DNA of 64,000 bases from a virus, in IMG/VR virus record IMGVR_UViG_3300000976_000009, positions 45,151 through 109,150 of that record. The stretch is one strand, 5' to 3'. The position numbers and the translations under genes were made by a program. The notes beneath the pieces were generated by a model that was not told the origin of the DNA, did no database searches, and saw only the letters and a list, made by a program, of their open reading frames with translations. This document shows, piece by piece, positions 14,384 through 33,471 of this stretch (within the stretch, counting starts at the first letter, position 1; the number at the start of each line of letters is the position of its first letter).

Positions 14384-15508
14384 ATGACTAAGAAACTTAT
14401 TGTGACCGAAAAACAACTACAAATTATCACACAACATATTAATGAAAGTAATGATACTCTAAATAAATTATTATCAGAAGGTATAATTGAAGAAGGGTTC
14501 AAAGATATTGCACTTGGTTTATTAATGTTAGCTGGTGCAACTTTAACTGGTCAAAATAAAGCCATAGCACAAAAGGCTTTAGAAAACCAAGAGATTGTCC
14601 AAAAGATTGATGCGACACTTTCTGATACTAGTGAACTAAATAAAGTTATTAATAGAATTGATTCAAAAATGCCAAATGCTGGTCAAATGATTCAACAAAA
14701 TGCAGATAAAATTAAATCAACGATTAGTTATATTAATGATAAAAATGCTAAAAAACCAAAAGTTGGTCAAAGTGTTGTTTATTCAAAAACATCTAGCCCA
14801 TCTGTATTAAGGACTAGGTTAAAACAAGGTTATGCACTTTCTGATGTTAAAATAACTAGAGATACCATATTACCACCTAAAACTATTGTAACAGTACAGG
14901 ATACGATAGATTTTAAATGGTCATCAGATAATTTTTTTGAATCGGGAACATTCCAAATGAATCAAAACTCATCTGATTCTATTTCCACAGTAGTAAATGA
15001 AATAAATGCACAAGGTGGTCGAATTATTGGTGTTTATATCGAATCATCAACTGATAAAGAACCAATTAGAATGGGTAATACAAAATTAGCCCAACTAAGA
15101 GCAAATAGTGTTGAACAATTTATGCAAACATTAAATATTGGTGAAGCTAAATTTGAGGTTACTACAAGTCCAGATAGTGGTCCAGAAATATATGTTGCTG
15201 GTATGTCTAAAGAAGATAGATTAGATGCCCGTATTAAAACCGCCCCATATAGATTCGTGAATATAAGATTAATCGTTGTATTTGATGAAGAAGTCAAAAA
15301 AGGTGAAACTGCTCCACAAGTAATTGAAAGACATAGATACGAGTTAGTTAAAGTAAACACACTCATTTATAAAAAAGTAAAAATTAGGTATAAGAAAGGT
15401 AAAAATAAAACATCTTGTAAAAAAATTAAGACTAAAAATAAAAAACGTGGGGTAAGTACTACTTCATGTGAAATGTTTGGTGGGTCTGGTCTTAGTTGGG
15501 CACAATAA
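14384..15508 (+). CDS. OmpA-like peptidoglycan-binding domain protein with ITE/LSE leader and hydrophobic helix
   Basis: VYIESSTD...GNTKLAQLRANSV...RFVNIRL OmpA_C-like pattern; LIVTEKQL and IALGLLMLAGATL near the N-terminus. Confidence 0.55.
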   Translation: MTKKLIVTEKQLQIITQHINESNDTLNKLLSEGIIEEGFKDIALGLLMLAGATLTGQNKAIAQKALENQEIVQKIDATLSDTSELNKVINRIDSKMPNAGQMIQQNADKIKSTISYINDKNAKKPKVGQSVVYSKTSSPSVLRTRLKQGYALSDVKITRDTILPPKTIVTVQDTIDFKWSSDNFFESGTFQMNQNSSDSISTVVNEINAQGGRIIGVYIESSTDKEPIRMGNTKLAQLRANSVEQFMQTLNIGEAKFEVTTSPDSGPEIYVAGMSKEDRLDARIKTAPYRFVNIRLIVVFDEEVKKGETAPQVIERHRYELVKVNTLIYKKVKIRYKKGKNKTSCKKIKTKNKKRGVSTTSCEMFGGSGLSWAQ

Positions 15509-16411: not shown

Positions 16412-16900
16412 ATGGCTGATTTGTTAATGAAAATGCCCGTACCGTACGAACCAAAGAAAAAAAATCGTTGGTTAATTAGATTCCCATCTGATTTGGGGAT
16501 TCAAGAATGGTGGCTACAAAGTGCTTCAAGACCTTCTATTACTCAAAATGAAGTTGAGATTCCATTTCTTAACACGTCAACTTGGGTAATCGGTAGATTT
16601 ACTTGGGAGCCAATAACTGTTACATTTAGAGACCCTATTGGTCCATCTGCTTCACAAGCAATTATGGAGTGGGTTAGATTACACTCTGAATCTATCACAG
16701 GTAGACAAGGTTATGCTGCTGGATACAAAAAAGATGTTGAAGTAGAAATGCTTGACCCAACTGGTGTTGTGATTGAAAAGTGGGTACTACAAGGTACGAT
16801 GACCACGAATGTTAGTTTCGGTGACTTAGCGATGGACGATGACTCTATTGCAGATATCACGGTTGACTTAAGATTTGATAGGGCAATCCTAGTATTCTAA
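16412..16900 (+). CDS. Tail tube protein (gp19-like)
   Basis: SASRPSITQNEVEIPFLN, GRFTWEPITVTFRD, YKKDVEVEMLDPTG motifs; 162 aa. Confidence 0.92.
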   Translation: MADLLMKMPVPYEPKKKNRWLIRFPSDLGIQEWWLQSASRPSITQNEVEIPFLNTSTWVIGRFTWEPITVTFRDPIGPSASQAIMEWVRLHSESITGRQGYAAGYKKDVEVEMLDPTGVVIEKWVLQGTMTTNVSFGDLAMDDDSIADITVDLRFDRAILVF

Positions 16901-17026: not shown

Positions 17027-18202
17027 ATGCCAGAGAACAAACCAAGCGTAATACCAACACAAGACCAAATCCTTAAGATGAATGAGGAAATGGCTGATAA
17101 ACCAGATATGAGTATGATTGAGCAAGCTAATGCTACAGGTACTGAAATTGCTAATCAATTCGAAAAGGAACAAGAAATTAAATTCAATAGTGAAGTACCT
17201 TTGGGTGAACAAGCCGCTGCGGAAGCTATGCGTTTAAAAACCCAAGAACAAATTGCTGAAAGAGAAAGATTACTTCAACAACAAAAAGATAGGGCTGCGT
17301 TACTAGACCAAGAGAGGGCTAAGATGATGAATCAAAAACCACCTCAAAGACCACCAGTACAACCACCAGTTCCTCCTACCCCACCAGTTCCACCATCAAA
17401 TCCGTCTGGATACGATATGCCAGAAAGGGCACCAGAACCTGTGGATAAATATTATGCTATTAGTCAACCTCAAATGAATGCTTCATTTGATGTTATTCCA
17501 CTACCTTCTGAGGGTAGACTATACAAAAATGGTAAAAAGTCTATTAAAGTGGCTTATTTGACCGCTGCTGATGAAAATATACTTACTAACCCAAACCTTA
17601 TGGAAAGTGGTGAGTTTTTGGAGATTTTATTGAATAGAAAAATTTTAGAACCAGAATTAAGATATAAGGACCTACATGTGGGTGATAGAAATGCTATTAT
17701 GATTTGGCTTAGAGCAACAGGTTATGGGCATGAGTACCCAATTACTGTTTATGACCCAGAAACAGCAGAACCATTTGAACATATTGTAGATTTATCTGAA
17801 TTGAAAACAATTAATTTAAATGTTGAAACTGATAAAGAGGGGTTAATTGATTTTGAATTACCATTAACTAAAGCTAAATTAAAAATAAAGTTATTAACAG
17901 TTGGTGATGTTGCTGATATTGAAGAGCATGTGGGTGAGAAAATGGGTCTTAATGATGGTTCGGTTGACACAGTAACTTACACATTAGAAAAACAAATTGT
18001 TGACATTAACGGAAACAGAGATAAAGCGTATATAAAGGATTTTATTCAATCTATGAGGGTTGGAGATTCCAACGCTGTTAGAAAGTATATTGACCAAATT
18101 GATAGTGGAATTGACATGAAGCTAGAAATCGGGACTCCTGGGGGTGGGTCCCTCGACACGTTTCTTCCCATTAACTTCAAGTTTTTTTGGCCTAACTTAT
18201 AA
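17027..18202 (+). CDS. Baseplate hub/tail assembly chaperone, T4 gp26-like, with Q/P-rich N-terminal extension
   Basis: IPLPSEGRLY...LTAADENIL, GDRNAIMIWLRATGYG and C-terminal FFWP patterns. Confidence 0.75.
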   Translation: MPENKPSVIPTQDQILKMNEEMADKPDMSMIEQANATGTEIANQFEKEQEIKFNSEVPLGEQAAAEAMRLKTQEQIAERERLLQQQKDRAALLDQERAKMMNQKPPQRPPVQPPVPPTPPVPPSNPSGYDMPERAPEPVDKYYAISQPQMNASFDVIPLPSEGRLYKNGKKSIKVAYLTAADENILTNPNLMESGEFLEILLNRKILEPELRYKDLHVGDRNAIMIWLRATGYGHEYPITVYDPETAEPFEHIVDLSELKTINLNVETDKEGLIDFELPLTKAKLKIKLLTVGDVADIEEHVGEKMGLNDGSVDTVTYTLEKQIVDINGNRDKAYIKDFIQSMRVGDSNAVRKYIDQIDSGIDMKLEIGTPGGGSLDTFLPINFKFFWPNL

Positions 18203-18509: not shown

Positions 18510-19742
18510 ATGAAATTGAGAGTAGAACATACAAGATTAAGGTCACTTATTACTGAGGCGACATATCAAGATGCGTTCGCCCAAATTAAAAGGGGAGACA
18601 CATTAGTTGTTAAAAGTGGTAAACAAGTATATAAATCAGAGATTATCAGTAAGTTCAGTAATCAAGTTACTTTTGAATGGGAAGGGGAATATTACATTAT
18701 AACTGATAATTCGTACAATGGTAAAAACCTTGATACTATGAGGATGGTTATTGGAGATGATGGTAAGAAAAAAAGAACTGTTAAAGGACCAACAATTAAA
18801 GGTGTTTATAATATTATAATTAAAAGGGGTGATAAAATTGTTACTGGTGTAACACCAGATAATGGTAGACCAAAAGATAAAGAACAAGACCAAGAAAAAG
18901 CAAAATCACAATTTGAAAGAAGACGTGAGGATATATTTTCAGAATTTAATAATTTAGATACTGGTGATGTGATTGAAATTACAACTGGTAAAGTAATAAC
19001 TAAAGGTGCTGATAAAGGTTCATTAGCGAAAAATTCAATTACAACAATTAAATTAAAGTCAGAAGGTGAAATGGGTAAATGGATTAAAATGTCACCAGTT
19101 GATTTTACTGGTGCTGAGGCTTCTAAATATTCAGAATATGATAACACATATTTCTTTTTTGATATCGGTTCAATTAAAACAACAAAAGAAGGTATAATTT
19201 TAATCCCAACAACTAAAAATTTAACGACTGGTGATACTGGTAAATTACAAATAAAAAATGTATTTGGAGTTGAGAATATTGGGTCACACGTAAAAGAACC
19301 AGAATATACTGTTGCTGATATTATGAAATCACCAGCAATGAGAAATATGATGCAAAAATCACCAAGTTTACTTAATAAAATTTTAGGTAGAACTAAATCA
19401 ACTGGTATTGTACCATTAGAAAAAAAATTATCTTCTATAGGGTTAAATAGTAAACCAAAAAAAGGTAAAAGAGTTAAATATGAATTTACTGGTGCTGATA
19501 TTAGACCAGACAAGGCATTTAATTTTAAAAATGGTAAAACATATATTGGTAAATTTACTAAGCAAAATGTTATTAGAAGGACAGGTGATAACAGAAGAGA
19601 GTCGATGTATTTAACAATGGGTAATAAAAATGATGATGGAACCTATAATGTAACCGTAGATTACGTTAAAACTGTTAACAATGAGCCACAACGTGAGCAA
19701 ATTGGTAAGGGTAAAATAAAAATTATTGAATTAACAAACTAA
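18510..19742 (+). CDS. Basic hypothetical protein with LITE leader (possible head-internal protein)
   Basis: 410 aa, Lys-rich, with its own TATTTAT motif at 18489-18495. Confidence 0.6.
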   Translation: MKLRVEHTRLRSLITEATYQDAFAQIKRGDTLVVKSGKQVYKSEIISKFSNQVTFEWEGEYYIITDNSYNGKNLDTMRMVIGDDGKKKRTVKGPTIKGVYNIIIKRGDKIVTGVTPDNGRPKDKEQDQEKAKSQFERRREDIFSEFNNLDTGDVIEITTGKVITKGADKGSLAKNSITTIKLKSEGEMGKWIKMSPVDFTGAEASKYSEYDNTYFFFDIGSIKTTKEGIILIPTTKNLTTGDTGKLQIKNVFGVENIGSHVKEPEYTVADIMKSPAMRNMMQKSPSLLNKILGRTKSTGIVPLEKKLSSIGLNSKPKKGKRVKYEFTGADIRPDKAFNFKNGKTYIGKFTKQNVIRRTGDNRRESMYLTMGNKNDDGTYNVTVDYVKTVNNEPQREQIGKGKIKIIELTN

Positions 19743-19745
19743 TAA

Positions 19746-22328
19746 ATGGCAAACGAAGGTTTTAATCCAGACGACTTTAGAGAGTATGAAGAGAGGTTAG
19801 CTAAGATTTTGGAGTTACAGAATCGTGCAACTGATGGTCTTAAAGGTTATAATTCCATATTGAAAGATATTAAGGAAGTAGCTAGAAATTTGAAAACCAT
19901 CAAAGAGCAAGAAGCTAGGTTATTAAATGAAATTGAAAGTAGGGAAAAGAAAAGGCAAAGGTTAATAGCTAAAGCTGGAACTTTACAAGGTAAAAATAAG
20001 AAACTTGTTGAAGCCGAAGTAAAAGAACTTGAAAAAGAAATAGCTGCAAGAAAAGAAGGTTTAAAGTATGCCAAACAAAAGACTGCTACTTTAAAAGAAA
20101 ATGCAGCCATATTAGCTGATTCAGCTAATTCTGGTAATTTATTATCAGCATCATTCGTATCAATTGGTAGAGGTGCTGTCGGTGCACTTAAAACACTTAA
20201 AGGTATGTCAAAAGAAATGCTAAAAGAAATGAAAGCAGTTCAAATGACAGAACAAAGTATGGGTATTCTAAATAAAAATGCCGATGCATTTAGAATGAAC
20301 ATGTATAAAGCTGCTGGAACGACAAATCAATTGGGTGTTAATGCTGGTGATTTAGCAAAAATGCAAGGTGCTTATTCGGAACAAATAGGTAAAAGTGTTG
20401 TTTTAAGTGAACAAGGTTTAATTGCTATGGCTGAAATGGCTAAAGGGACTATGTTGGGAGTTGAAGGAACTGCTGAAATGGTCGCTAATTTAGAGAATTT
20501 CGGTATATCCGCAATGGGTTCACATAAAATAATGGAAGAAATGATGAATACATCTACTAAAATGGGTGTTAATTCAGTTAAAGTCACCGCTAATTTAAAG
20601 AAAAATTTACAATTAGCAAATAAATTTCACTTTAAAGATGGTGTTAAAGGTATGATGAGACTTGCCGCTAGTGCTGCTAAAGTTAGAATTAATATGGATG
20701 GTATTGCAAGTATGGCTGATAAGGTATTTAGACCAGAAGGTGCAGTAGAAATGGCTTCAAGACTTCAAACTATGGGTGGTGAATTTGCTAAATTAGCTGA
20801 CCCATTCACACTTATGTTTAAAGCTAGAAATGATTTTGAAGGTTTTACTAATGATATAATTGATGCATCAAAAGAATTTGCTAAGTTTAATAATGAAACT
20901 GGTGAATTTGAAATTTCTGGTCTTGGGTATGATAGGATTAAAGAAATTGCTGATATTACAGGTATGGCAGCATCAGATGTCGCACAAATGTCAAAAGATG
21001 CTGCTAAATTAGACCAAATTGAAATGAATATTGGTGGTGGTGTAACTGATGAACAAAATAAAGAATTCATTTCATCAATAGCTAGTTTTAATCAAGCAAC
21101 TAAAGAATATGAGGTTACTATTGGTAATCAACAAATTGGTATAAATAAATTAACTGATTCACAAGTTAGTGCTATGAGAGATGAGAAAGAATCATTAAAA
21201 GAGAGGGCTAAACAAGCACAAACATTTGATGAAACTTGGAAAAACTTACAAAATACATTTAAAACATTATTATTCCCAATACTAAATGGTTTATCAGAAG
21301 GACTTAAAGAACCATTAGCCCAATTTATGGAATGGGCTCAAGAGAGTGGTGGATTTGATAGGTTATTTGAAGCATCAAAAAAAGTTGGAAAACAAATTGG
21401 TTCTTTTTTAAAAGGTGCGACTGAATTAGCTACATCAATTTTAGAGTTTGTTGGTGATAATCCAATAACGAGTGGAATCATGGCATTAATTGGTAGTGCA
21501 GCCCTTTGGGTTGCAAGAGGTATGTCTCTTGGAATGGGCTTCAATATGACCGCATCACCTGGTGGAATGATGAGTGGAATGATGGGTGGTCGTGGTGGTG
21601 GTAGACGTGGTGGTCTAGGTGGAATGATGGGTATGGGTAACCCATTTAAATCGGCTAAAGCTGGTTATCGTGGTGCTGGAATGAAAGGAAAAGGTTTCGG
21701 TGGTAAGATGATGGGTGGAATGAAAGGTTTCGGAAAAGGTATGGGCGGAATGGGTATGGGATTACTCGGAATGGGTACTAGTATGGGGTTGGATTACCTT
21801 AGAAGTGGTATGGATGACCCAAATAGTACTGGTGGTAAAGCAATGGGTGTTGGTAGCTCAGCATTAATGGGTGCTGGTACTGGAGCAATGTTTGGACCTT
21901 GGGGGGCACTAATTGGTGGACTAATTGGTGGACTAATTGGGGCTGGTTATGGTACATTTAATGAATTCTTTACCGAAGGTGGTAAAGGCGGACCAATTGG
22001 GAGGCAGAGTGCCACACAGAGCTTTGATGATGTTATTATGCGTAGTGGACAAGCTCCGATTGGGATTAATCCAGCTGATGATATTATGTCAGTTAAAAAA
22101 GATGGACCAGTTGATAAAGCATTGGATAAGGGTAATGCATCTGGTGATATTAGGGTTTCATTTGGGAACACTATGAAGATTGAAGGTAATTTAACTTTAA
22201 ATAATGGTGATGGTTCAGCAGATATTACATTGGATGACCCAGTATTATTAAGAGATTTAAGTAGCCTTATACAACAAGAGTTAAGCAAAGCAATTAATGG
22301 AGGTAAAATGTCTCCAAATCCAGCATAA
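19746..22328 (+). CDS. Tape measure protein
   Basis: Long helical/coiled-coil, A/G/M-rich, C-terminal hydrophobic GLIG repeats; lies after the chaperones and before the baseplate genes. Confidence 0.85.
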   Translation: MANEGFNPDDFREYEERLAKILELQNRATDGLKGYNSILKDIKEVARNLKTIKEQEARLLNEIESREKKRQRLIAKAGTLQGKNKKLVEAEVKELEKEIAARKEGLKYAKQKTATLKENAAILADSANSGNLLSASFVSIGRGAVGALKTLKGMSKEMLKEMKAVQMTEQSMGILNKNADAFRMNMYKAAGTTNQLGVNAGDLAKMQGAYSEQIGKSVVLSEQGLIAMAEMAKGTMLGVEGTAEMVANLENFGISAMGSHKIMEEMMNTSTKMGVNSVKVTANLKKNLQLANKFHFKDGVKGMMRLAASAAKVRINMDGIASMADKVFRPEGAVEMASRLQTMGGEFAKLADPFTLMFKARNDFEGFTNDIIDASKEFAKFNNETGEFEISGLGYDRIKEIADITGMAASDVAQMSKDAAKLDQIEMNIGGGVTDEQNKEFISSIASFNQATKEYEVTIGNQQIGINKLTDSQVSAMRDEKESLKERAKQAQTFDETWKNLQNTFKTLLFPILNGLSEGLKEPLAQFMEWAQESGGFDRLFEASKKVGKQIGSFLKGATELATSILEFVGDNPITSGIMALIGSAALWVARGMSLGMGFNMTASPGGMMSGMMGGRGGGRRGGLGGMMGMGNPFKSAKAGYRGAGMKGKGFGGKMMGGMKGFGKGMGGMGMGLLGMGTSMGLDYLRSGMDDPNSTGGKAMGVGSSALMGAGTGAMFGPWGALIGGLIGGLIGAGYGTFNEFFTEGGKGGPIGRQSATQSFDDVIMRSGQAPIGINPADDIMSVKKDGPVDKALDKGNASGDIRVSFGNTMKIEGNLTLNNGDGSADITLDDPVLLRDLSSLIQQELSKAINGGKMSPNPA

Positions 22329-22557: not shown

Positions 22558-25500
22558 ATGCCAAATGGAATCAACGATATTTCACCAGACTTAAGAGACT
22601 GGTTATTAAACAAGAACCTTATTTTAGCTGACTCAATCACTGATGGTGGTTTAGCTGGGTTAGCTGTGGGATTAGGACAAGTAGCCCAAGTGGAAACATT
22701 ACCAAATGCGGTGCAACCATCAACTAGTATTGTTGATAATGGTCAATTCTATAGAGATTTAAACCTTTTATCAAACCCATATAAATCATTAAATGGTAAT
22801 GAAGAAATTGATATTAATACAAATACAATCATTAATATTGGTAATTTACCACCAGGTTCTTTACCTCTAGGTTATCAACAAAATATAGGGTCAGATAATC
22901 CAACATCACCTTTTAATATTGAAGCTGATGAAGCTAGAGAACAAATGTTGAAAAATAAGTACTTTGATGCTGAATTTCTATATAAGGTTAATCTTAACAC
23001 AGTATTTGTTTCACCAGAATCTGATGGTGTTTATAAAATTAAGGAATCAATAATAGCTAGGACTATTGATACAGCATTAAATGCAGTTAATTTAGGTGGT
23101 GTGGCACAACAAGTTGGTGTTATCGGTGATGATACACCGTTAGGTACTATTGGTGACCAAGAACTTGTTAAACATTTCGGATATAACGCAGCATTTGGTT
23201 TAGCACAAGAAACATTAGGTCATATAAATGCAAACCCACTTAGTCTTTTACAAGGTAATGATATTTTTGTACCTAATTTTGCAATTACTGTTGCTAAGGG
23301 TGATACTGCTGGTGTTGGTGATTTCGCTTCTAGGGTATTAGGTTTTGAATTACCAGTTAGTTTATTAGACACATCTTCATCACCATTTTCTTCTGAAAAT
23401 CCAGTAGATAATATTAGAAGGGCTCAAGCTATGGTTGAGAATACTGGTAAAGGTCAAGTTTTGGCTATGATTGATAATTTAAACCAAAATAAATATAGAC
23501 CAACTATAACTGATAATAGAAAAAGAGAAAATATTACTAAGGGTGATACTGGAACTAATGGTGATTTATATGCCTTTGAAGCTGCCGAAAAAGGTCGAAT
23601 TACCGAATTATTAAATATGCCCCCACGAGATGAAAATTCAACTGAAACAGTTTCTAATGAAGAATTTGAAACAACATACGGTAAAATTACATCCGAATTA
23701 GATGGTGGTTTTAATAGTGAATTTGATGATTTAACTAATAAAGCAACGAGTTTCAATGATGTCGATGATAGGGGTAATGGTGAATGGGCAACAACTAAAT
23801 TTACTTGGACTGATGATAAAAATAAAAAAGGTGAGGAATTAGGTGTTTTCAGTAGAACTGATATGAAAAACCCTAAAAGTTTATTATATAAAACCCAAGC
23901 TCTTTTTAATTCCAATAAAACCAGAAATTTAATTACAGCACAAGGTGATATACAAATTTCACCTAGTGAAATAGAAACGGCTGTATCAGTAGGGTCTAAT
24001 ACTTTTATTTCTAAAGGTTCTGGAGTTAAATCATTATCAGCCATTGAGGGTACTGCTATAGAACCAGATGATGTGTTTTGTAGAGTATGGACAACATTTG
24101 ATAGGTACAATCAAGTTCATGATTTACAAAAGAATGATGGTTTAAATAATCAATCTGGTTTAAGACTTAAAAATAGAACTGAATCTTCATTATTAGATAG
24201 TGGTTCAAATGGATTTGTTAAGGTTGCACCATATGCTAGTGAACCAAATGTTAAAAAATTCATGTTATCATTAGAAAATTTAGCTTGGGATGGTCCATTA
24301 TTTTCTGACTTACCAGAGTGTGAGCAAGGACTTGGTGACCCAGTTACTGGAACTCGTGGTAGGTTAATGTGGTTTCCACCATATGATTTACAATTTACAG
24401 ATACCACATCAGTTAATTGGGATTCTACCAACTTTATTGGTAGAGGTGAACCAATTTACACATATAACAATACTGAAAGAACAGGTACTTTAGGATTTAA
24501 GGTTATTGTTGATTATGCCACATACATGAATGATATGAGAGTATTGAATTCTGATAATGATTTGTATAATAGTATTGCTGCTGGTTGTATTGATTTTGAT
24601 AGAGAAGTTGTTAAACAATTATCTAAGAGTGAAAAAGATAAAATTGATGTAGAAAATGCTGAAAAACCGCAAATTATTGAAGCTGAGATAACTGGTGAAG
24701 CACCAGAACCATTTAAAGTCTATTTCCCAAATGATGCAACAGCTGTACCAACAACATATGAGGATGGTATCGTAGTTGAAAATGCGGTAACGTATAGTGA
24801 TGGTATAACATTCACTGGTTGTAAACCATTTACACCAGGTAAAAGTACTGCTGGTTGTAATTGTGCACAAAAGAATAGTACTGATTTTGGATTAAATGTA
24901 CAACCACTTAAATTACCATCTGATGCAGAAATTACAGATTTCCCAACAGGTTGGCAAGGTGGTGCATATTTGATTGCTTTAGCTGAATATATCGTAAATA
25001 AAGCCCCATCAGTTAGGATATACATTGATGGTTGGGCTAGTTCGGATGGTACAGCTAGTGCAAATGCAACATTATCCCAAAGTAGGGCGAATAATGTTAA
25101 ACAAAGATTAGAATCACAATTAATTGCTGCTGGTGACCCATTGGGGGGTAGGAGATTTGGTCAACAACCAAAAGGTAAGGGTGTTGCAAATGCAACTAGT
25201 TGTAAACCAAAAACAATTAAAAGTTGTGACCCACAACCAGGTGTTCCAGATGTAGATGCTAAGTGTAAGAAGGAATCTAGGGTAACAACGATATCATTCA
25301 AAAAAGACCCAGCACTTCAACAACAAATTGATGATGCAATTAAAGTCAAAGAGAAGAGTGAAAGATTAAATGAATTATCAAGGGAAATTAAATCTAGATT
25401 TATTGATGAATGTAGTTATTTTGAAAAGATGGAGCAAGATTCACCATTTATATATGATAGGATAAGTGAAAAAATCGCCTTCTTCCACCCAGCATTTCAC

Positions 25501-26388
25501 TCTACAACACCAGAAGGATTTAACTCTAGGTTGAACTTTTTAATGCAATGTACTAGACAGGGACCAACACCTAATTCAAGTAATGACCCATCTAATTTAG
25601 CATTTGGTAAGGCACCAGTTTGTATTTTAAGATTGGGAGATTTTTATAATACTAAGATTGTTATAGATAATGTTGATTTGTCGTTTGACCCACTTGTTTG
25701 GGATTTAAACCCAGAGGGTGTTGGTGTTCAACCAATGATTGCTAACGTAATGTTATCATTTAAATTTATTGGTGGTTCTAGTCTTAGTGGTCCGATTAAT
25801 AGATTACAGAATGCTGTTTCATTTAATTATTTTGCTAATACTGAAATTTATGAAACTAGGTCTGATTATATTGAAGATGGTGAGTATAGGAATGGATTTG
25901 CCCCAACTGATGATGATGCCCTTAGAGAATTTTTAAATGAATCGGAACAAGAAGGTTTAGGCACAAATAATAATGTTCCAGTTAATAATCAATTGTCTGA
26001 GGCTGAAAGAGCAAATTCTAATGAAGAAAATCAACCAGAAGACCTTGGTAGTAAGAATTTTACTTTTGTAAATTATGAAATTGGTATTGGATTACCACCA
26101 AATAGTGAATTGGATGGAACAACTCCAGTACCAGTTAGTGTTAGATTTACTATTTCATCAGATGAAGAATTAAATAAAGATGAATACCCTTTCGATATAA
26201 TTTTAGTTGATTCAAATACTGGTGACCCAGTTAGTGGACCATTTAAGTACATTTATTCAAAAGATAATGAAACTAGTACGGCTAATTGGGTTTTACCATT
26301 AAAGGGTAACATTAATGATATAAAAAGAAATTATGGTTTAAAGGGAATTGGAATAGATGGATACCCTATGACAATAATAAGTGGATAA
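22558..26388 (+). CDS. Baseplate/tube-initiator-like protein (gp48/gp54, CIS tube-like) with inserted OmpA-like domain (likely start 22558)
   Basis: WFPPYDLQF...IGRGEPIYTYNNTERTG and PVCILRLGDFY...NVMLSFKFIG halves flank IDGWASSDG...NATLSQSRANNV. Confidence 0.65.
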   Translation: MPNGINDISPDLRDWLLNKNLILADSITDGGLAGLAVGLGQVAQVETLPNAVQPSTSIVDNGQFYRDLNLLSNPYKSLNGNEEIDINTNTIINIGNLPPGSLPLGYQQNIGSDNPTSPFNIEADEAREQMLKNKYFDAEFLYKVNLNTVFVSPESDGVYKIKESIIARTIDTALNAVNLGGVAQQVGVIGDDTPLGTIGDQELVKHFGYNAAFGLAQETLGHINANPLSLLQGNDIFVPNFAITVAKGDTAGVGDFASRVLGFELPVSLLDTSSSPFSSENPVDNIRRAQAMVENTGKGQVLAMIDNLNQNKYRPTITDNRKRENITKGDTGTNGDLYAFEAAEKGRITELLNMPPRDENSTETVSNEEFETTYGKITSELDGGFNSEFDDLTNKATSFNDVDDRGNGEWATTKFTWTDDKNKKGEELGVFSRTDMKNPKSLLYKTQALFNSNKTRNLITAQGDIQISPSEIETAVSVGSNTFISKGSGVKSLSAIEGTAIEPDDVFCRVWTTFDRYNQVHDLQKNDGLNNQSGLRLKNRTESSLLDSGSNGFVKVAPYASEPNVKKFMLSLENLAWDGPLFSDLPECEQGLGDPVTGTRGRLMWFPPYDLQFTDTTSVNWDSTNFIGRGEPIYTYNNTERTGTLGFKVIVDYATYMNDMRVLNSDNDLYNSIAAGCIDFDREVVKQLSKSEKDKIDVENAEKPQIIEAEITGEAPEPFKVYFPNDATAVPTTYEDGIVVENAVTYSDGITFTGCKPFTPGKSTAGCNCAQKNSTDFGLNVQPLKLPSDAEITDFPTGWQGGAYLIALAEYIVNKAPSVRIYIDGWASSDGTASANATLSQSRANNVKQRLESQLIAAGDPLGGRRFGQQPKGKGVANATSCKPKTIKSCDPQPGVPDVDAKCKKESRVTTISFKKDPALQQQIDDAIKVKEKSERLNELSREIKSRFIDECSYFEKMEQDSPFIYDRISEKIAFFHPAFHSTTPEGFNSRLNFLMQCTRQGPTPNSSNDPSNLAFGKAPVCILRLGDFYNTKIVIDNVDLSFDPLVWDLNPEGVGVQPMIANVMLSFKFIGGSSLSGPINRLQNAVSFNYFANTEIYETRSDYIEDGEYRNGFAPTDDDALREFLNESEQEGLGTNNNVPVNNQLSEAERANSNEENQPEDLGSKNFTFVNYEIGIGLPPNSELDGTTPVPVSVRFTISSDEELNKDEYPFDIILVDSNTGDPVSGPFKYIYSKDNETSTANWVLPLKGNINDIKRNYGLKGIGIDGYPMTIISG

Positions 26389-26399
26389 AATATTAAATA

Positions 26400-26720
26400 A
26401 TGTCAGAATATTACGATAGATACGAAAGATTTAAAGCAGATGGAACAGTAAAGCCAATACCAGGTCTTTTTGTTGATAATAAGCCATCAGATAAGAAAAT
26501 AGTTTATAAAATGGGTAGCTCAAGACTTGACAAATTGTCTCAAGAGTATTATGGTAACCCATATCATGGTTGGTTAATATTATCAGCTAATCCACAATTT
26601 GGTGGGTTAGAATTTAATATACCAGACCAAGAAGTTATAAGAGTACCATTTCCTTTCGACTCAGCATTGGAAAGGTATTTAGAGCAAGTTAATAGACACA
26701 TAGCATTATATGGGGAATAG
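26400..26720 (+). CDS. LysM-like baseplate wedge protein (gp53/tail X-like)
   Basis: RLDKLSQEYYGNPYHGWLILSANP motif. Confidence 0.8.
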   Translation: MSEYYDRYERFKADGTVKPIPGLFVDNKPSDKKIVYKMGSSRLDKLSQEYYGNPYHGWLILSANPQFGGLEFNIPDQEVIRVPFPFDSALERYLEQVNRHIALYGE

Positions 26721-29700
26721 AAAATCAAATATTAATCCAGCTAGTTACGAAGGTGGTAAAGTGATATTAGTAGACCCAAACCCAGAAAATAGGGAAATAG
26801 TTACACCAGAGGATTTAAGTATCTCTGTTAAATTGAGAACAATAAAAAGGGAGAGGTCATCAATAGTTGTAGATTCATCTACTGATGCGAGTATTGCTAC
26901 AGTTAAAACTGGTGATAATGGTGGTGTAATTAATTTTATTGGTGGTAGTAAAACTGGTGATGATAGGTCATTGACCACACACTATACTGAATTAAATACT
27001 GATTTCAATAAGACCAATGGTGATTTAGAGACCCTTGGAATTACTGGAATTAAAATCGATTTTAATTCCTCATATGCACCATTAATCACAATTAACTTTA
27101 CTGATATTAGGGGTAAATTATTTGAGATGGGTAATGATTCACCTTATAGTGTATTTTTCAATCTTCCATACCCAATATTTGAATTAACAATTAAAGGTTA
27201 TTATGGTAAGGCAGTGACATATTGCTTACATTTAACTAAATTTAATGGTAAATTAAATGATAAGACTGGTAACTATGAAATATCTACACAATTTGTTGGT
27301 TATACTTTCGCATTCTTAGCGGATATGTTAATGGGTTATCTTAGGGCCGTACCATATACACCATGTGGTTTAGACCAAATTGAAAAGAAGAATCTTGAAA
27401 CGGTAACAACCGCTAATGGTGTATATACTAATACATTTTTTACTTTTGATGAATTACAAGATGGGATTCTAAATTTGAATATTGAATTACTTAAATTAAA
27501 ACACGATGACCCAAAAATAGCTGCATTAGCTTTGGCTGAAAATACTATAGTTTCTCTAGAAACATTAAAAGAAACAATTCGTGATTTATTAAATAATGTA
27601 ACTAAAGATACTAAAATAATTAGGACATATGGTAATTTTGTCATTTCAGCTAAGAAACCAAGTGGTACAACAACACAAAAAGTCACTAATGCTGAAAATG
27701 CGTTTAATAGAACTATTAAACTTAGAATTAGTGAAATTAATGATACACTAACTACAAAATACCAATTAAACGAAAACACTTATAAAATTATTAATAATCA
27801 AACTAAGTTTAATAGGGTGAAGCAAAGTGATTTTGGTAGTAATGAATATGATGCCTATATCTTACTAATGGAGGAAGCACAAAATGTTGAAAGACAGATT
27901 CCAAAATTAATGGATGAAAAAGAGGAAGGTGCTGATGAATATGACAAATTTAAAGATTTTGTTAAGGCAACACCCGAAACTAATGATGAATTTGTTATCT
28001 ATGATATGTCTAGAGCACTTGATGATTTAACAGAAAAAATCACCTCATTAAAAAACGATACATCTGCAACTAAGGAAGAAGTAGCGGATGAATTTGGTGA
28101 AGTAATAGCAGACACATTAGGTAAAACAGACGAATATGGGGACCCAATACTACCATTTGAACCAACTGTTTTAAATTTCTTTAAAATATTATCTGACCAT
28201 GTTGATATTTTTATGACATGTCTTAGAGATTTAGCTAGTAGTATTGAACTGGACCCGAATAAGAGAAAAAAAGATTTAGAAAAAGTTGTTGGTGGATTAG
28301 ATATTGTTAAAGGTGATACTAATATTGAAAACCTAAAGCCGTGGCCAGATTATAAAGAAAAGGATGATAAAGTTAATGGATATGTAGATAAGTGGATTGG
28401 CAATAAAGCACCAACAATGCCAGAGGTGCAATTTGTTGAAGATATGTTATCTGGTTTACTTAAGGCTAAGCAACGAGATAATGAATTTTTAAATAAATTA
28501 GATTTAGGATTCCCAAATTGGTATCCAGTAAATCCCTTTGATACCTCATTATTTACATCATTTGAGAATCCTTGGAAATCGGTTGAGGATAAGGATGATG
28601 CTGAGGTTATTAGACTTATGTTACTTAGAGGTATCACATTTATTGGTTTCTCACATAGGGGTGGATTAACTGATAAAGAGATTAGGGCTATGGCTAGAAT
28701 TGAAGCTAATAATGCCTATACAAGTATTAAGAATCAAGAAATTAAAGATTCCATTAGATATTATAATGAAAAAAATGATGTTCGTGATATTGTTGATGAA
28801 GTTGTTAACGAAGCATTGTTTGGTAAAACTGAGTGGAAAAATTATGCTAAGGCATTAAATGGTAATTCAATTTTAAATAAGGAGTACACTACGTATACCC
28901 CACAAGTTGCTGGTTTTAATGTCGATATATCTTTATTTGGTTACCAAATAGCTGGTGGTACACAAACAATTAGATTCCATGAATATATTTATGTACCATC
29001 ATTTGAATCTTATACGACAGTTGATGCCGCAGTACAAGCACAAGAAGATGCTAAGATATTTGAACCAATATGGGATAAAGATGAAATTGCACAATTTATC
29101 CCATTATATAACCCAAATAATGATAATAGATTATATGGGGGTGGTTATCTTGCGGTTAAAAGTTCTGAGGATGCATATTGGGGTGACCAATCTGATAATA
29201 ATACATTGGTAACTAACGCTGAACGTATAAAGCTTAGGGATGATGAAGGTGCAATATTTTTCAGTAATTACCTAGGTGGTAATGGTGGTGGTACTGATGG
29301 TAGAGAGGATGATGGTTCAACTTGGTTCGAAATATTAGATGGATTTGGTAATGATAGTGATTACTATCGTCAACCAGATTTAAATTTCCCAAGCTATGGT
29401 GATAGGATATTAGAAGAAGAAGGGTTATCAAGGTCACCAGTAGCAACACTTGAAAACTCATATGGTTTTTTATGGAATTCTGATAATGTATCGGAAAATA
29501 CATCTGTTTTTGGTGGTTTACATAAAACTCACGAATTTATTAATGCAAAAGTTGATGGTGAATATATGGTTGCTGGTCAAACTGATATACCAGCAGCATT
29601 GATGTTTTATACAAACACCACTTCTGGTAGACCAATATTTACTGGTTCAAGAACATTAGGTGTTGGTGGTGTTAAAGTTGCATATAGTCAATATGATATA

Positions 29701-32700
29701 CAATTCGATAGTGAGATTGTTAATGGTGAAAAGGTCATAACAAAAATTTATCCAGACACTAGGTCTACACTAAGTTTTGGTAAAATTCAAGCTTGTAATA
29801 GGTTTGATGAACAAGATAGTATATTAACAAAAAGGGTTAGTTCGAATGAAGATTCAGAATTAGGTGCTAATAAATCAGCTATTTACCAATCATTAACTGA
29901 TAGAGTGAATGTTAGTACACCATTCCTTGGATTTAAAGTATATGAACAAGTTCCATTAACTGATGAAGAAGATGCATTTAGTTCATTTGGGGCTTTCGAA
30001 CATTTCTCAACGTTTGGTAGTGACTTATACTATTCTCAAGATAATGAATACGCAAAGGCATACTTATTCTTACATAGTATACCATTTGATGGTATGGCAT
30101 TTAATCTTGAAGGTACTTTTGGGACATTAGGTAACTTATTTGATAGTAGTAATAGAGCCAATGGTTTATTTAGTAAATCAGTTCAATCATTCTTTAACCA
30201 GAGGGCTGGCTTTATTGAAATACCACATTCTTGGTTATTATTTTTAGGTGCAGTTATAAAAAGACAATGGAATTCTGGCATTGGTGGTGGTGAGTACGTT
30301 AAATTCCTTGATGATACTGATGGTTATTCATTAATACCATATATACCATCTGATGGACCTATACCAGCTAATAATGAATATTGTTTACCAGATTTAGCAA
30401 CAAATGAGGTATTCGGTTTTCAAAACAAACAAGGTGGTGTTGGTATTATTGGTGGAACAACTAGTGATTTTACTGAGGTTGAAAGAACAATTAGATTTTT
30501 ACCTTGGAACATTAAAAGAACTTTGGTTGATTATTTTGAAGATTGGGTTGAAGATGAAAGTACATCACTAGGTTGGGGTGCCATAAGAAATGAATTACAG
30601 TTATTTAATAATAGTACAACAAAATTAGATAGAATTGATTATTGGCAAACTTTCAGAACTAGATTAAGTAATGACCCTTTAGATTTATACACAGACCCAA
30701 TAGTAAATCCTAAAGCGGTATTTAATTATATTGTAATATCAAAAGATGAAAAACACCAAGATAGGTCATATTTACCAGGTGATGGTGGACAATTGATTAC
30801 TGATGTTAATTTAGCAAGTACTTCAACAATTGCTAGTACAGTAACAAAAAATGCAAATATGGGTACACCATTTAATTTTTTCTTAGAAATGAGAGATGAG
30901 AGTGATGCTGTTAATAAAATGTTTGATTTTTTAACAGCAACTAGAATTTGTGCAAATGCAAGTTGGAGACCTTGGGCGATGGATGCTGAGGTTCCAGTAC
31001 CAGGGATTAGACACCCATTTAGATTTGATAGGGATAAATTAGGAACATATGTTACTGGCTTCATAAAGGAGTTCATTGATTTACATACTGAGGATGATTC
31101 AGTCGATAAAGACTTGAAGTTAAAACAAGAGTTATTCCAATCAATTAATAATGATGATATTAAATTAAATATTTATAAAAACCTAAAATCAATTCACGAT
31201 AAATGGATTGCTGGTGGTATTAGTAGTTGTGGTGTAACTAGATTAATTGACCATTTTAAATTTATTGATAGGTCATATAGGGATATTAGTGATGAATTCA
31301 AAGTAAACCCATCTAATATGATGGAATATATGGTTAGAGATTATAACCAAAGTTTTTATGAATACACTGCTAGGGTTCTTACAGATAATAATTTTGATTT
31401 CATACCACTACCTAGTTGGGTTGATTATAATAGTAAGAAAGAGATTGAGAATGTATTTAATACTTATTCTTATGTTGACACACCTAAAAGTAGTGGTCCA
31501 CAATTTATTTGTATGTATATTGGTGAAAGGTCTAATAAGTTAGATTTAGGTAACCAAAGTCAATATGATAATGATGGTTTTGATTTCAAAATAAAAGATG
31601 GTGGTGTTGATGTATCAATTTTACCAGAAGACTTAACTTCACCAAAATCTGGTGATAGAAGTAAGGTACCAGTATTTTTAGTTAAATACAGTGACCCAAA
31701 TCAAAGTGTTTTTAAAGGGTTCAAATTAGACCAAAGTGAATTTACTGAGACAGATGAATCATTACAAGTTATTGATGATATAGCTAATAAAGGTGGTCCT
31801 AATCAAGCTTCTGGTGTTGGTCAAAATTTATTTGATATTTACAATACTAGGTCTTATTCAGCTGAAATAGAAATGATGGGTAACGCACAAATTCAACCAT
31901 TGATGTATTTCCAATTGAGTAGTGTACCTATGTTCCACGGAGCATATACAATTATTAAGGTTTCACACGTTATTAAACCAAATACGATGTCTACAACATT
32001 TAAGGGTGTTAGAATACGTCACGTAAAGACTAAGATGGTTGATGACACTACAATATTTATGAATTTAATTGGTTCATTAACAGATGTTCAATTTAGTTCA
32101 GCCGATTTAGATGATTTAAGTAAATCAGTTGATGAGGATGCTGGAAAAGGTGGTGTATCAAATACTCAAGGTGGTGTTAGATTATCTGAGCATAGAAATT
32201 TAACTGGCACAGGTGGTCCAGGTCAGCCAGATTGGTCTGGTTGTATAACTTATCCATTAAAACAAGGAAATGGTGTTAAAGTACAAGATAAATTTAAATT
32301 AAATCGTGCATTAAACGGTAAAAAAAGTGGTATAATTTCACCATATTGTCTTGAAGAAGTTGGTAAATATATTGAGAAAGTTGGTTCAATGTGGAATAGT
32401 CGTAGTAAAAACAAAACACATGGTGATACAATTTGGTTTAATGATTTATCATTATATGGTGGTGGCGATATTGTTGGGCATTCAACACATGAAACAGGTT
32501 TAAGTATTGATATAAGACAAGTTAGGGTTGATAAAGAAAATAAAGGTGTTTATGTTTTTAGTAAATATACTAGTGGAAGTTGCCCAAAACCAACTACCAC
32601 AACATTACACCCAAAATATGATAGAGCTGCAACAATAGAATTTATTGAATTATTATTAGATGAAGCTTTGGTCACCAATGGTTTTAGAGACCCAAATAAA

Positions 32701-33471
32701 CAAATTGTTAGGATAATTTATTTTAATGACCCAGAGGTTATAAATCATTTCAAGAACTATAAAGGTTATAATAGAAATATGGTTAAAGAAAGTTGTGGTC
32801 ACCACCACCACTTACATGTTGAATTTAATTTACCAGATAGGATAGCTGATGATGAAGTAAATGATTATATTATTTGTAAAGAACAATTACCTGTATCACC
32901 AAGTACTGCTGATGATGGTATGGTTGGTCATTTGAATGATATGCCAGATATATTAACAAGTTTGGGTTATCAAAAAGGTGGAATTGTGCATGAGATGGCT
33001 ATGATTATTGCTAGAAAAGAAGGTTATGGTTCAAAAAATGAAGGTAATAGACCAAGAAGGAATAATAATCCAGGTAATCTAGTTGGAACTAACTTCAAAG
33101 ACATCGACCCAAATGTAAGTATAGAGGTAGCATCTAAACCAATATTTGCTAAATTTAGTAAGAAAGAATTAGGTGTTCAAGCATTAACTGATAAGAAAAT
33201 TATACAATGGGCAAATGGTGGATATCCATCAACCAAAACAAATGGTAGTAGTTCTAATGCTAAAGCATTCCAAAACAAATATAATGTCCCACAAGGTGTT
33301 AGAGGTATTGGTGGCTCTGGTAAACCAATGACTATTGAGCAGTTTATGTACACATACGCTCCACCAAACGAAAATAATACTGAAAGATATGTTAAGAGTG
33401 TTGTAGATGCATTAAATGCAAATGGTTTAGGGGTAAATAGGACATCAGTAATAAAAGATTATATCACATAA
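26710..33471 (+). CDS. Baseplate hub (gp27-like) fused to MepA-like endopeptidase and lysozyme-like domains
   Basis: N-terminal GITGIKIDFNSSYAPLITINFTD; SAEIEMMGNAQIQP...YTIIKVSHVI; GHSTHETGLSID/HHHLHV; RNNNPGN...YAPPNENNT. Confidence 0.7.
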   Translation: MGNRKSNINPASYEGGKVILVDPNPENREIVTPEDLSISVKLRTIKRERSSIVVDSSTDASIATVKTGDNGGVINFIGGSKTGDDRSLTTHYTELNTDFNKTNGDLETLGITGIKIDFNSSYAPLITINFTDIRGKLFEMGNDSPYSVFFNLPYPIFELTIKGYYGKAVTYCLHLTKFNGKLNDKTGNYEISTQFVGYTFAFLADMLMGYLRAVPYTPCGLDQIEKKNLETVTTANGVYTNTFFTFDELQDGILNLNIELLKLKHDDPKIAALALAENTIVSLETLKETIRDLLNNVTKDTKIIRTYGNFVISAKKPSGTTTQKVTNAENAFNRTIKLRISEINDTLTTKYQLNENTYKIINNQTKFNRVKQSDFGSNEYDAYILLMEEAQNVERQIPKLMDEKEEGADEYDKFKDFVKATPETNDEFVIYDMSRALDDLTEKITSLKNDTSATKEEVADEFGEVIADTLGKTDEYGDPILPFEPTVLNFFKILSDHVDIFMTCLRDLASSIELDPNKRKKDLEKVVGGLDIVKGDTNIENLKPWPDYKEKDDKVNGYVDKWIGNKAPTMPEVQFVEDMLSGLLKAKQRDNEFLNKLDLGFPNWYPVNPFDTSLFTSFENPWKSVEDKDDAEVIRLMLLRGITFIGFSHRGGLTDKEIRAMARIEANNAYTSIKNQEIKDSIRYYNEKNDVRDIVDEVVNEALFGKTEWKNYAKALNGNSILNKEYTTYTPQVAGFNVDISLFGYQIAGGTQTIRFHEYIYVPSFESYTTVDAAVQAQEDAKIFEPIWDKDEIAQFIPLYNPNNDNRLYGGGYLAVKSSEDAYWGDQSDNNTLVTNAERIKLRDDEGAIFFSNYLGGNGGGTDGREDDGSTWFEILDGFGNDSDYYRQPDLNFPSYGDRILEEEGLSRSPVATLENSYGFLWNSDNVSENTSVFGGLHKTHEFINAKVDGEYMVAGQTDIPAALMFYTNTTSGRPIFTGSRTLGVGGVKVAYSQYDIQFDSEIVNGEKVITKIYPDTRSTLSFGKIQACNRFDEQDSILTKRVSSNEDSELGANKSAIYQSLTDRVNVSTPFLGFKVYEQVPLTDEEDAFSSFGAFEHFSTFGSDLYYSQDNEYAKAYLFLHSIPFDGMAFNLEGTFGTLGNLFDSSNRANGLFSKSVQSFFNQRAGFIEIPHSWLLFLGAVIKRQWNSGIGGGEYVKFLDDTDGYSLIPYIPSDGPIPANNEYCLPDLATNEVFGFQNKQGGVGIIGGTTSDFTEVERTIRFLPWNIKRTLVDYFEDWVEDESTSLGWGAIRNELQLFNNSTTKLDRIDYWQTFRTRLSNDPLDLYTDPIVNPKAVFNYIVISKDEKHQDRSYLPGDGGQLITDVNLASTSTIASTVTKNANMGTPFNFFLEMRDESDAVNKMFDFLTATRICANASWRPWAMDAEVPVPGIRHPFRFDRDKLGTYVTGFIKEFIDLHTEDDSVDKDLKLKQELFQSINNDDIKLNIYKNLKSIHDKWIAGGISSCGVTRLIDHFKFIDRSYRDISDEFKVNPSNMMEYMVRDYNQSFYEYTARVLTDNNFDFIPLPSWVDYNSKKEIENVFNTYSYVDTPKSSGPQFICMYIGERSNKLDLGNQSQYDNDGFDFKIKDGGVDVSILPEDLTSPKSGDRSKVPVFLVKYSDPNQSVFKGFKLDQSEFTETDESLQVIDDIANKGGPNQASGVGQNLFDIYNTRSYSAEIEMMGNAQIQPLMYFQLSSVPMFHGAYTIIKVSHVIKPNTMSTTFKGVRIRHVKTKMVDDTTIFMNLIGSLTDVQFSSADLDDLSKSVDEDAGKGGVSNTQGGVRLSEHRNLTGTGGPGQPDWSGCITYPLKQGNGVKVQDKFKLNRALNGKKSGIISPYCLEEVGKYIEKVGSMWNSRSKNKTHGDTIWFNDLSLYGGGDIVGHSTHETGLSIDIRQVRVDKENKGVYVFSKYTSGSCPKPTTTTLHPKYDRAATIEFIELLLDEALVTNGFRDPNKQIVRIIYFNDPEVINHFKNYKGYNRNMVKESCGHHHHLHVEFNLPDRIADDEVNDYIICKEQLPVSPSTADDGMVGHLNDMPDILTSLGYQKGGIVHEMAMIIARKEGYGSKNEGNRPRRNNNPGNLVGTNFKDIDPNVSIEVASKPIFAKFSKKELGVQALTDKKIIQWANGGYPSTKTNGSSSNAKAFQNKYNVPQGVRGIGGSGKPMTIEQFMYTYAPPNENNTERYVKSVVDALNANGLGVNRTSVIKDYIT

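Follow-up and report, generated by a model that had tools for sequence, protein, structure and literature searches.

Pvc7, a homologue of gp48, is a tube initiator which forms the first ring on the spike of its contractile system and carries a LysM-like domain that serves as glue (PMC12546770). In phage 812 the initiator is a hexamer with the hub on one side and the tube on the other, and digestion of the cell wall at the tube tip has been proposed as a task of the hub (PMC13433997). Here we analyzed a baseplate gene, P0001, in a stretch of 64,000 nucleotides of viral DNA (hereafter the window), which represents bases 45151-109150 of IMG/VR record IMGVR_UViG_3300000976_000009, a record of 353,143 bp with direct terminal repeats and a G+C content of about 32%. 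According to a structural model and the gene order, P0001 is the gene of a T4-related jumbo myophage for the protein of its tube-initiator ring, and this protein has an OmpA_C-like domain placed inside its tube fold.

The gene lies on the + strand at 22558-26385 of the window (26388 with the stop codon), and translation of its open reading frame (ORF) gives a baseplate protein of 1276 amino acids (aa). The ORF listing puts the start at TTG 22483; ATG 22558 was preferred because the common N-terminus of the relatives (MPN.IN...) begins there throughout the family.

OmpA-like insert and tube-like flanks

The sequence-only reading had placed an OmpA_C domain at 24709-25305 (residues 718-916). The motifs which it quoted are found there, and this part of the protein takes the beta-alpha-beta-alpha-beta-beta fold of OmpA_C in an AlphaFold2 model. 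The model covers residues 555-1110, was made with an alignment of 98 sequences and has a mean predicted local distance difference test score (pLDDT) of 71, mostly 76-96 over the OmpA part. By structure, Pfam and profile matches the OmpA_C-like domain was delimited as residues 707-918 (model residues 153-364), which correspond to 24676-25311 on the + strand. The top Foldseek matches of the model in the PDB are all OmpA-like, namely OmpA, Pal, MotB, PorE and TagL domains. The comparison by VIA-align with 3td5_A, the Acinetobacter OmpA domain with bound peptidoglycan pentapeptide, gave Z 10.7 with a root-mean-square deviation (rmsd) of 2.8 Å and 117 of 119 residues aligned, and about 40 further OmpA-type entries (OmpA, Pal, MotB and TagL chains) were matched at Z 8-10.

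By sequence, the OmpA signal is borderline for P0001 alone and solid at the level of the family. The whole protein scores 24.1 bits against Pfam OmpA (E 4.8e-5), which is under the cut-off of 27.2 bits, and the six-frame search of the genome gives 28.2 bits, which is over it; phmmer against the PDB reaches Pal at E of about 0.1, and phrog_7897 is the only PHROG match of the protein. When the family profile was searched against the PDB it found solved OmpA domains, the best being 5wtp_A (Capnocytophaga OmpA, E 5.1e-5). Among 42 diverse relatives, 28 match Pfam OmpA individually (best E 1.1e-11), and this is the sole family that recurs in them; with a profile of the insert core, bacterial OmpA proteins are matched at E 3e-14.

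The extra Cys-rich loops which had been described from the letters of the sequence are also present, with C755, C767, C769, C882, C890 and C903. The first three of these residues belong to an elaboration of the beta1-alpha1 loop of about 75 residues (residues 726-800; 24733-24957, +), together with the motifs YENG and FGLN, of which Y734 is found in 210, E735 in 201, L779 in 199 and N780 in 215 of 221 relatives. The other three belong to a loop rich in Cys which precedes the last strand (residues 875-906; 25180-25275, +), where pLDDT is lower. About 69% of the relatives have a CxxC at residues 816-819 (25003-25014), often along with two Cys before the last strand, and this CxxC pair may be a metal site or form disulfides. 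In P0001 and the relatives nearest to it Ala/Val stands at 816/819 instead, and the loops have other Cys, six of them in P0001.

Tube-like halves had been claimed on both sides of the insert, at 24360-24530 and 25600-25830, and the fold matches agree with this: they span model residues 5 to 519 (residues 559-1073; 24232-25776), their alignments cross the insert, and the closest of them are of the Pvc7/Afp7 type. Parsing of the AlphaFold2 model into domains likewise gave an OmpA_C domain with tube-like flanks, and neither another fold of the insert nor flanks of another kind were found. The tube-fold matches include a PVC baseplate chain (6j0n_b, Z 9.5), an AFP chain (6rao_G, Z 9.4), the PlPVC1 chain 9qgl_7A (Z 9.4, 133 residues aligned, rmsd 4.1), P1 (9ay5_G, Z 8.8), AlgoCIS (7aeb_M, Z 8.2) and a Streptomyces contractile injection system (9gtp_P, Z 8.1). 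The AFP, PVC and AlgoCIS chains have 223-225 residues, and we take them as the Pvc7 counterparts. Lower-ranked matches on the initiator side come from phiCD508, phi812, diffocin, the 'baseplate-initiators' of A-1(L), pyocin R2 and Mu; in this myophage/pyocin tube-initiator group 9euf_M has Z 7.6, 8kea_P 7.3, 6u5b_h 7.2 and 9ki1_0 6.6. Matches to other baseplate, tube, Dit and Hcp chains number more than 15, each of them covering model residues 5 to 519, and the Dit, Hcp and tube proteins rank last with Z 6-7.

P0001 was assigned as a tube initiator because nearly all of the matches outside the OmpA group form one structural family and because the gene order agrees. T4 has the order 29-48-54, in which the genes of the two tube-initiating rings come behind gene 29 for the tape measure, and P0001 is in the gene 48/54 position since it stands directly behind the tape measure gene as in T4. 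Sequence methods show no tube relationship: the search of the family profile against the PDB returned OmpA domains only and zero tube proteins, hhalign of this profile with the single T4 gp48 and gp54 sequences, which is a weak test, gave a probability below 1%, and none of 42 members matches a Pfam tube family. The case for a tube-like domain is therefore one of predicted fold and gene order.

The N-terminal region of the protein (residues 1-558; 22558-24231, +) is conserved in the family and has several near-invariant motifs. Its AlphaFold2 model is poor (pLDDT 56, predicted template modelling score 0.29), Pfam and PHROG gave no lead for it, and its matches in the ESM Atlas are unnamed viral clusters at 0.83; these 558 residues may fold only inside the baseplate. 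The first half of the tube fold follows (residues 559-651; 24232-24510, +) with strands at 570-574, 602-606, 612-619 and 639-651, and with a family identity of 0.66-0.83 over residues 601-650 it is among the best conserved parts. The second half (residues 985-1089; 25510-25824, +) consists of helix 985-997 and strands 1021-1026, 1030-1043 and 1060-1070; the tube-initiator alignments end at model residues 518-526, and family identity is 0.65-0.85 over residues 976-1100. A variable C-terminal region (residues 1090-1276; 25825-26385, +) closes the protein, and past residue 1175 occupancy is 0.33-0.58 and identity at most 0.07 across the relatives.

The insertion point lies between the fourth strand and the helix which opens the second half, and the OmpA-like domain is connected to it through two helical linker arms. 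Arm 1 (residues 652-706; 24511-24675, +) has pLDDT 43-64 and contains G676-C677, with G676 in 220 and C677 in 199 of the 221 relatives. Arm 2 (residues 919-984; 25312-25509, +) contains E951-C952-x-Y954-F955, with E951 in all 221, F955 in 220 and C952 in 127 of them. The two cysteines, C677 (24586-24588) and C952 (25411-25413), one on each arm, co-occur in 121 of the 221 relatives, and the pair could staple the neck of the insertion. Since both halves of the tube fold are intact in the model, the insert with its OmpA-like domain probably stands out from the ring on its outer side.

Family distribution and ligand pocket

The sequence-only reading had called the domain spliced into the protein. 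This stands as far as the domain is inserted in the tube fold, and it does not stand as a local event, for the insert is an old feature of the whole family, and its family-wide presence rules out a recent local splice. In the survey of orthologues for the insert, the profile matches 235 of 247 proteins and three of eight tested misses match Pfam OmpA (about 238 of 247). Neither insert-less nor split forms were found among the homologues; proteins shorter than 700 aa with the C-terminal half are fragments from short contigs or partial calls, and none of these joins the two tube halves directly. The spacing of the tube halves, which is the insert with both arms, ranges from 104 to 731 residues with a median of 301 in 245 proteins. 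The word-indexed search gave at least 1378 homologues. By the exhaustive search there are 1713 clusters (50% identity), of which 1217 have values below 1e-30; in IMG/VR the gene is encoded on at least 593 contigs, and some of these are up to 340 kb long.

A further layer was observed in relatives of 1680-1850 aa (P0044, P0045, P0058, P0060, P0063 and others), which have a WD40 propeller in the beta1-alpha1 loop at a site within residues 726-750 (about 24733-24807 of the window). There are 471 inserted alignment columns between these two residues, and the relatives concerned have WD40 Pfam matches. They present three nested layers, with the propeller in the OmpA domain and the OmpA domain in the tube fold.

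In TagL the walls of the ligand crevice are the loops beta1-alpha1, beta2-alpha2 and beta3-alpha3, the residues D486, N494, L497 and R501 contact diaminopimelate, and mutation of the N, L or R abolishes wall binding (PMC8253398). The ligand-pocket motif of P0001 occupies residues 825-844 (25030-25089, +) with G825, A827, S828, G831, N836, L839, R843 and A844, and by alignment to Pal and comparison with TagL the spacing of S828, N836, L839 and R843 is identical to that of the four TagL residues. The sequence-only reading had named the Asp and Arg equivalents of the diaminopimelate contacts as residues to look for; the Arg is present as R843, and the Asp is replaced by Ser828. The 221 relatives have at these four positions S in 208 and T in 6 with D in none, N in 208, L in 195 and I in 17, and R in 217.

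Only 17 positions of the insert of about 210 residues are conserved in at least 80% of the 221 relatives. The pocket residues are among them, and the other positions are Y722, F723 and N725 of the first strand, K905 and R908 of the last strand, Y734-E735 and L779-N780. Ligand binding would predict such a constraint on the crevice. The elaboration of about 75 residues and the Cys-rich loop occupy two of the three crevice loops, and because the loops are enlarged while N836, L839 and R843 are kept, the binding crevice looks remodelled and constrained rather than lost or abandoned.

The Ser variant was followed in bacterial proteins. The solved FopA1 of Francisella (6u83) also reads GYAS. Five Bacteroidota genomes, which were reached via related loci, were searched with Pfam OmpA and 30 loci were fetched; GYASPEG is found in 2 of the 19 motif-bearing bacterial OmpA proteins of these genomes. 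Both are Bacteroidales proteins built like a classic outer-membrane OmpA (signal peptide, barrel, coiled coil, OmpA_C), and they rank 1st and 3rd of the 30 loci by the core profile of the phage family and about 24th and 26th by Pfam. This gives modest evidence, at the level of motif and profile, that the insert belongs to the GYAS class of bacterial OmpA domains.

Two other OmpA genes were found in the same phage. One encodes a protein of 374 aa at 14384-15505 (+), which matches Pfam OmpA with 33.4 bits over residues 184-260 (over the cut-off) and phrog_7897, and which reads STD in the motif. The insert was considered as a duplicate of this neighbouring protein and this was rejected, as BLASTP shows only the core motif to be shared (E 0.032). 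The other gene lies outside the window at about 200232-202046 of the genome and encodes about 560-600 aa, its frame running off the 5' end of the fetched locus; the N-terminal segment of this protein is hydrophobic, a large domain of it is without assignment, and its C-terminal OmpA_C is a textbook one with GHTD...NRRVE at 80 bits. Ser is thus specific to the initiator, since both other OmpA domains of the phage keep Asp. Taken with the GYAS of FopA1 and the GYASPEG of bacterial OmpA, this speaks against the Ser variant being the sign of a dead pocket.

Tail module and host hints

P0001 is part of a T4-like contractile-tail module with the gene order sheath, tube, hub-like protein, tape measure, P0001, gp53-like protein and giant hub. 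The sheath gene lies at 11454-14303 (phrog_23, 1.2e-56), and its nearest sheath likeness is to T4-type phages and cyanomyophages. It is followed by the OmpA-domain protein of 374 aa at 14384-15505, the gp19-like tube at 16412-16897 (phrog_4542, 4e-30), a T4_baseplate/hub-like protein at 17027-18199 (PF12322; phrog_150 baseplate hub), a protein of 410 aa at 18510-19739 without a confident family match, and, directly upstream of P0001, the tape measure protein at 19746-22325 (22328 with the stop codon, +; phrog_167, E 1.1e-13). Directly downstream, a small baseplate protein of 106 aa and gp53/LysM type is encoded at 26400-26717 (26720 with the stop codon, +); it matches phrog_7145 baseplate wedge subunit at E 5.5e-5, and its match to Pfam Phage_gp53 is weak. 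The last gene of the module, at 26710-33468 (33471 with the stop codon, +), encodes a hub of 2253 aa with an endolysin-like C-terminus. This hub has zero Pfam matches, and phrog_873 endolysin (E 4.4e-11, residues 2076-2235) is its sole family match, which leaves about 2000 residues outside it.

All of the eight related loci keep the order tube, hub-like protein, tape measure, P0001 homologue, small gene and giant hub. The small ORF behind the P0001 homologue is present in each of the eight with about 104-108 aa, or 166 aa in one, and the ORF at the giant-hub position has 1555-2213 aa in the relatives.

Another protein of the baseplate region, of 1452 aa at 45828-50183 (+), has SprB repeats (PF13573, E 1.3e-20) in three stretches, and the SprB repeat is a gliding-adhesin repeat of Bacteroidota. 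Genome-bin matches of the family, which are noisy, fall to Bacteroidota in 7 of 16 cases, and the rest are scattered (Gammaproteobacteria, a Prochlorococcus single-cell genome, Methanobacterium and others). On account of the SprB repeats and these bins, Bacteroidota are the probable hosts. The Prochlorococcus single-cell genome with a family member is AG-409-L21, and that of Methanobacterium is a metagenome-assembled genome; the scatter could come from noise in the binning, or the family could have a wider range of hosts.

Proposed role and comparison with known systems

By analogy with the described systems, we propose that six OmpA-like domains ride on the tube tip and hold peptidoglycan, a reading to which we give a little less than an even chance. 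A hexamer of P0001 would sit on the hub and seed the tail tube, and each insert would present its OmpA_C-like domain on two helical arms at the exterior of the ring. On contraction of the sheath the hub, the initiator ring and the tube would cross the outer membrane, and since the ring lies between hub and tube it would reach the wall if the hub does. The six domains would then bind the peptide stems of peptidoglycan without cutting them, and the tube tip would thereby be held in the wall beside the hydrolase of the hub. In a wider form, which is tentative and to be held with more doubt, a large uncultured lineage of mostly big phages, probably on Bacteroidota and perhaps on other hosts, would have added a latch step at the tube tip, in which the six tethered and remodelled OmpA-type domains grip the target peptidoglycan via a Ser pocket of the type found in the outer-membrane anchors of the host, and the hold is needed during wall opening by the hub enzymes and DNA delivery. 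In the relatives with a WD40 propeller in the crevice loop, the propeller may gate or redirect this latch.

Several points weigh against wall holding by a tube initiator. The Asp of the OmpA pocket pairs with the amino group of diaminopimelate, and this canonical contact residue (the D of GHTD) is absent from P0001; the residues of the pocket motif double as determinants of the fold; and the tube-fold Z of 9.4-9.5 is moderately over the background of 7-8 of the aligner, with pLDDT of 70-85 in that part. The family has no cultured member in the phage collection searched, where neither the whole protein nor its conserved C-terminal half had a tblastn match to any of 50,697 phage records, even at E 1. 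The authors of the Mu study think that the initiator of Mu stays with the baseplate (PMC11915804), and LysM-type folds in tube initiators (Pvc7, Afp7, Mu gp43 and pyocin R2) act as glue between proteins (PMC12546770, PMC11915804). The main rival reading, possible though in our view rather doubtful, is that the OmpA-like domains of P0001 are structural glue as well. They would attach to proteins of the wedge, the sheath initiator or the hub, would make the baseplate stable or gate it, and would never meet peptidoglycan, the conserved crevice then holding a peptide segment of a partner protein. The closest structural relatives use a fold of peptidoglycan-binding type in just this way, the loss of the canonical Asp fits, the WD40 propeller inserted in the crevice loop of relatives is a platform for protein binding, and the family-specific motifs YENG and FGLN could form a protein interface. 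However, the known role of glue is already taken by the separate gp53/LysM-type protein next door, which the examined relatives conserve, and this favours an anchor; moreover the ligand residues N, L and R persist in 88-98% of the relatives, bona fide outer-membrane OmpA proteins of Bacteroidales have this Ser variant, and the floppy tether of two arms (pLDDT 43-64) fits a reaching domain better than a packed brick.

In place of the diaminopimelate stem peptide, the crevice might recognise a different polymer of the envelope, or a periplasmic protein of the host which normally docks on domains of the OmpA/Pal type as TolB docks on Pal, and we consider this unlikely. Ser in place of Asp, the great enlargement of two of the three crevice loops, a Cys pattern of the loops which varies by clade (the CxxC of 69% of the family being absent in P0001) and the Pal-TolB complexes among the fold matches speak for such a ligand, but ordinary OmpA proteins of bacteria have this Ser variant too. 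It is very improbable that the flanks do not belong to an initiator at all and that P0001 is a trimer of hub type or distal-tail type with a second tube-like domain in the N-terminal 558 residues. Dit, Hcp and tube proteins do occur among the fold matches at Z 6-7, the N-terminal region failed to fold in AlphaFold2 and the hhalign comparison with T4 gp48 and gp54 was negative; yet the best tube-type matches are all initiators (Pvc7, Afp7, Alg7, P1, phi812, A-1(L) and pyocin), separate hub candidates are present at 17027-18199 and 26710-33468, and the gene is in the 48/54 position.

Our full-text literature search found no paper, work on secretion systems of type VI (T6SS) aside, which pairs an OmpA-like domain with a tube initiator or a phage baseplate. 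A tube initiator with an accessory module of wall-binding type is known, and what is new here is a different fold, which is nested and not appended; a domain of the OmpA wall-anchor type nested in a tube fold is the hallmark of a family that is very large. Should this domain bind peptidoglycan, a wall-anchoring step would be placed on the tube itself, which is undescribed for contractile tails in the literature searched, and it would be an example of a phage borrowing the envelope-anchor chemistry of its host. If it is glue, a second peptidoglycan-binding fold would have been recruited into baseplate architecture. On either reading the OmpA-like domain is a compact and testable module.

Pvc7, Afp7, Alg7, Cis7 and T4 gp48 have the beta-barrel fold of tube proteins like P0001, and they form the first ring on hub or spike. 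Pvc7-type initiators further share with P0001 an accessory domain of peptidoglycan-binding-type fold (PMC12546770) and a gene that adjoins the tape measure. They have about 224 aa with the LysM-like domain appended at the C-terminus, whereas P0001 has 1276 aa with the OmpA_C-like domain inserted on two helical arms, and unlike in these initiators the LysM-type protein of the P0001 locus is a separate gene. Mu gp43, Milano gp25 and the initiators of A-1(L), pyocin R2, phi812 (gp113) and P1 also combine a tube-like domain with extra parts, which in their case reach the wedges; their helix-rich or LysM extensions are terminal and none is OmpA-like, whereas the extension of P0001 is inserted.

With the barrel-OmpA proteins of the GYAS class in Bacteroidales and with the OmpA_C, Pal and MotB domains, P0001 shares the fold and the spacing of N, L and R; its Ser is as in GYASPEG and FopA1, and the single Arg before the last strand of OmpA_C, Pal and MotB domains is also found in P0001. 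It differs from these in the beta1-alpha1 elaboration of about 75 residues and the Cys-rich loop, and in being a virion protein whereas they are periplasmic anchors. The phage proteins of phrog_7897 and the Cellulophaga phage phi17:2 protein R9ZWT8, a BFVD match, also have OmpA_C-like domains, but these are small and separate and without a tube fold. In the T6SS the OmpA-like domain of TagL or long-form TssL ties a contractile injection machine to peptidoglycan (PMC8253398), and TagL matches the insert in fold with Z 9.7. There the domain belongs to the membrane complex and attaches from the inside to the wall of the attacker itself, whereas the domain of P0001 would sit on the leading ring of the tube and meet the wall of the target.

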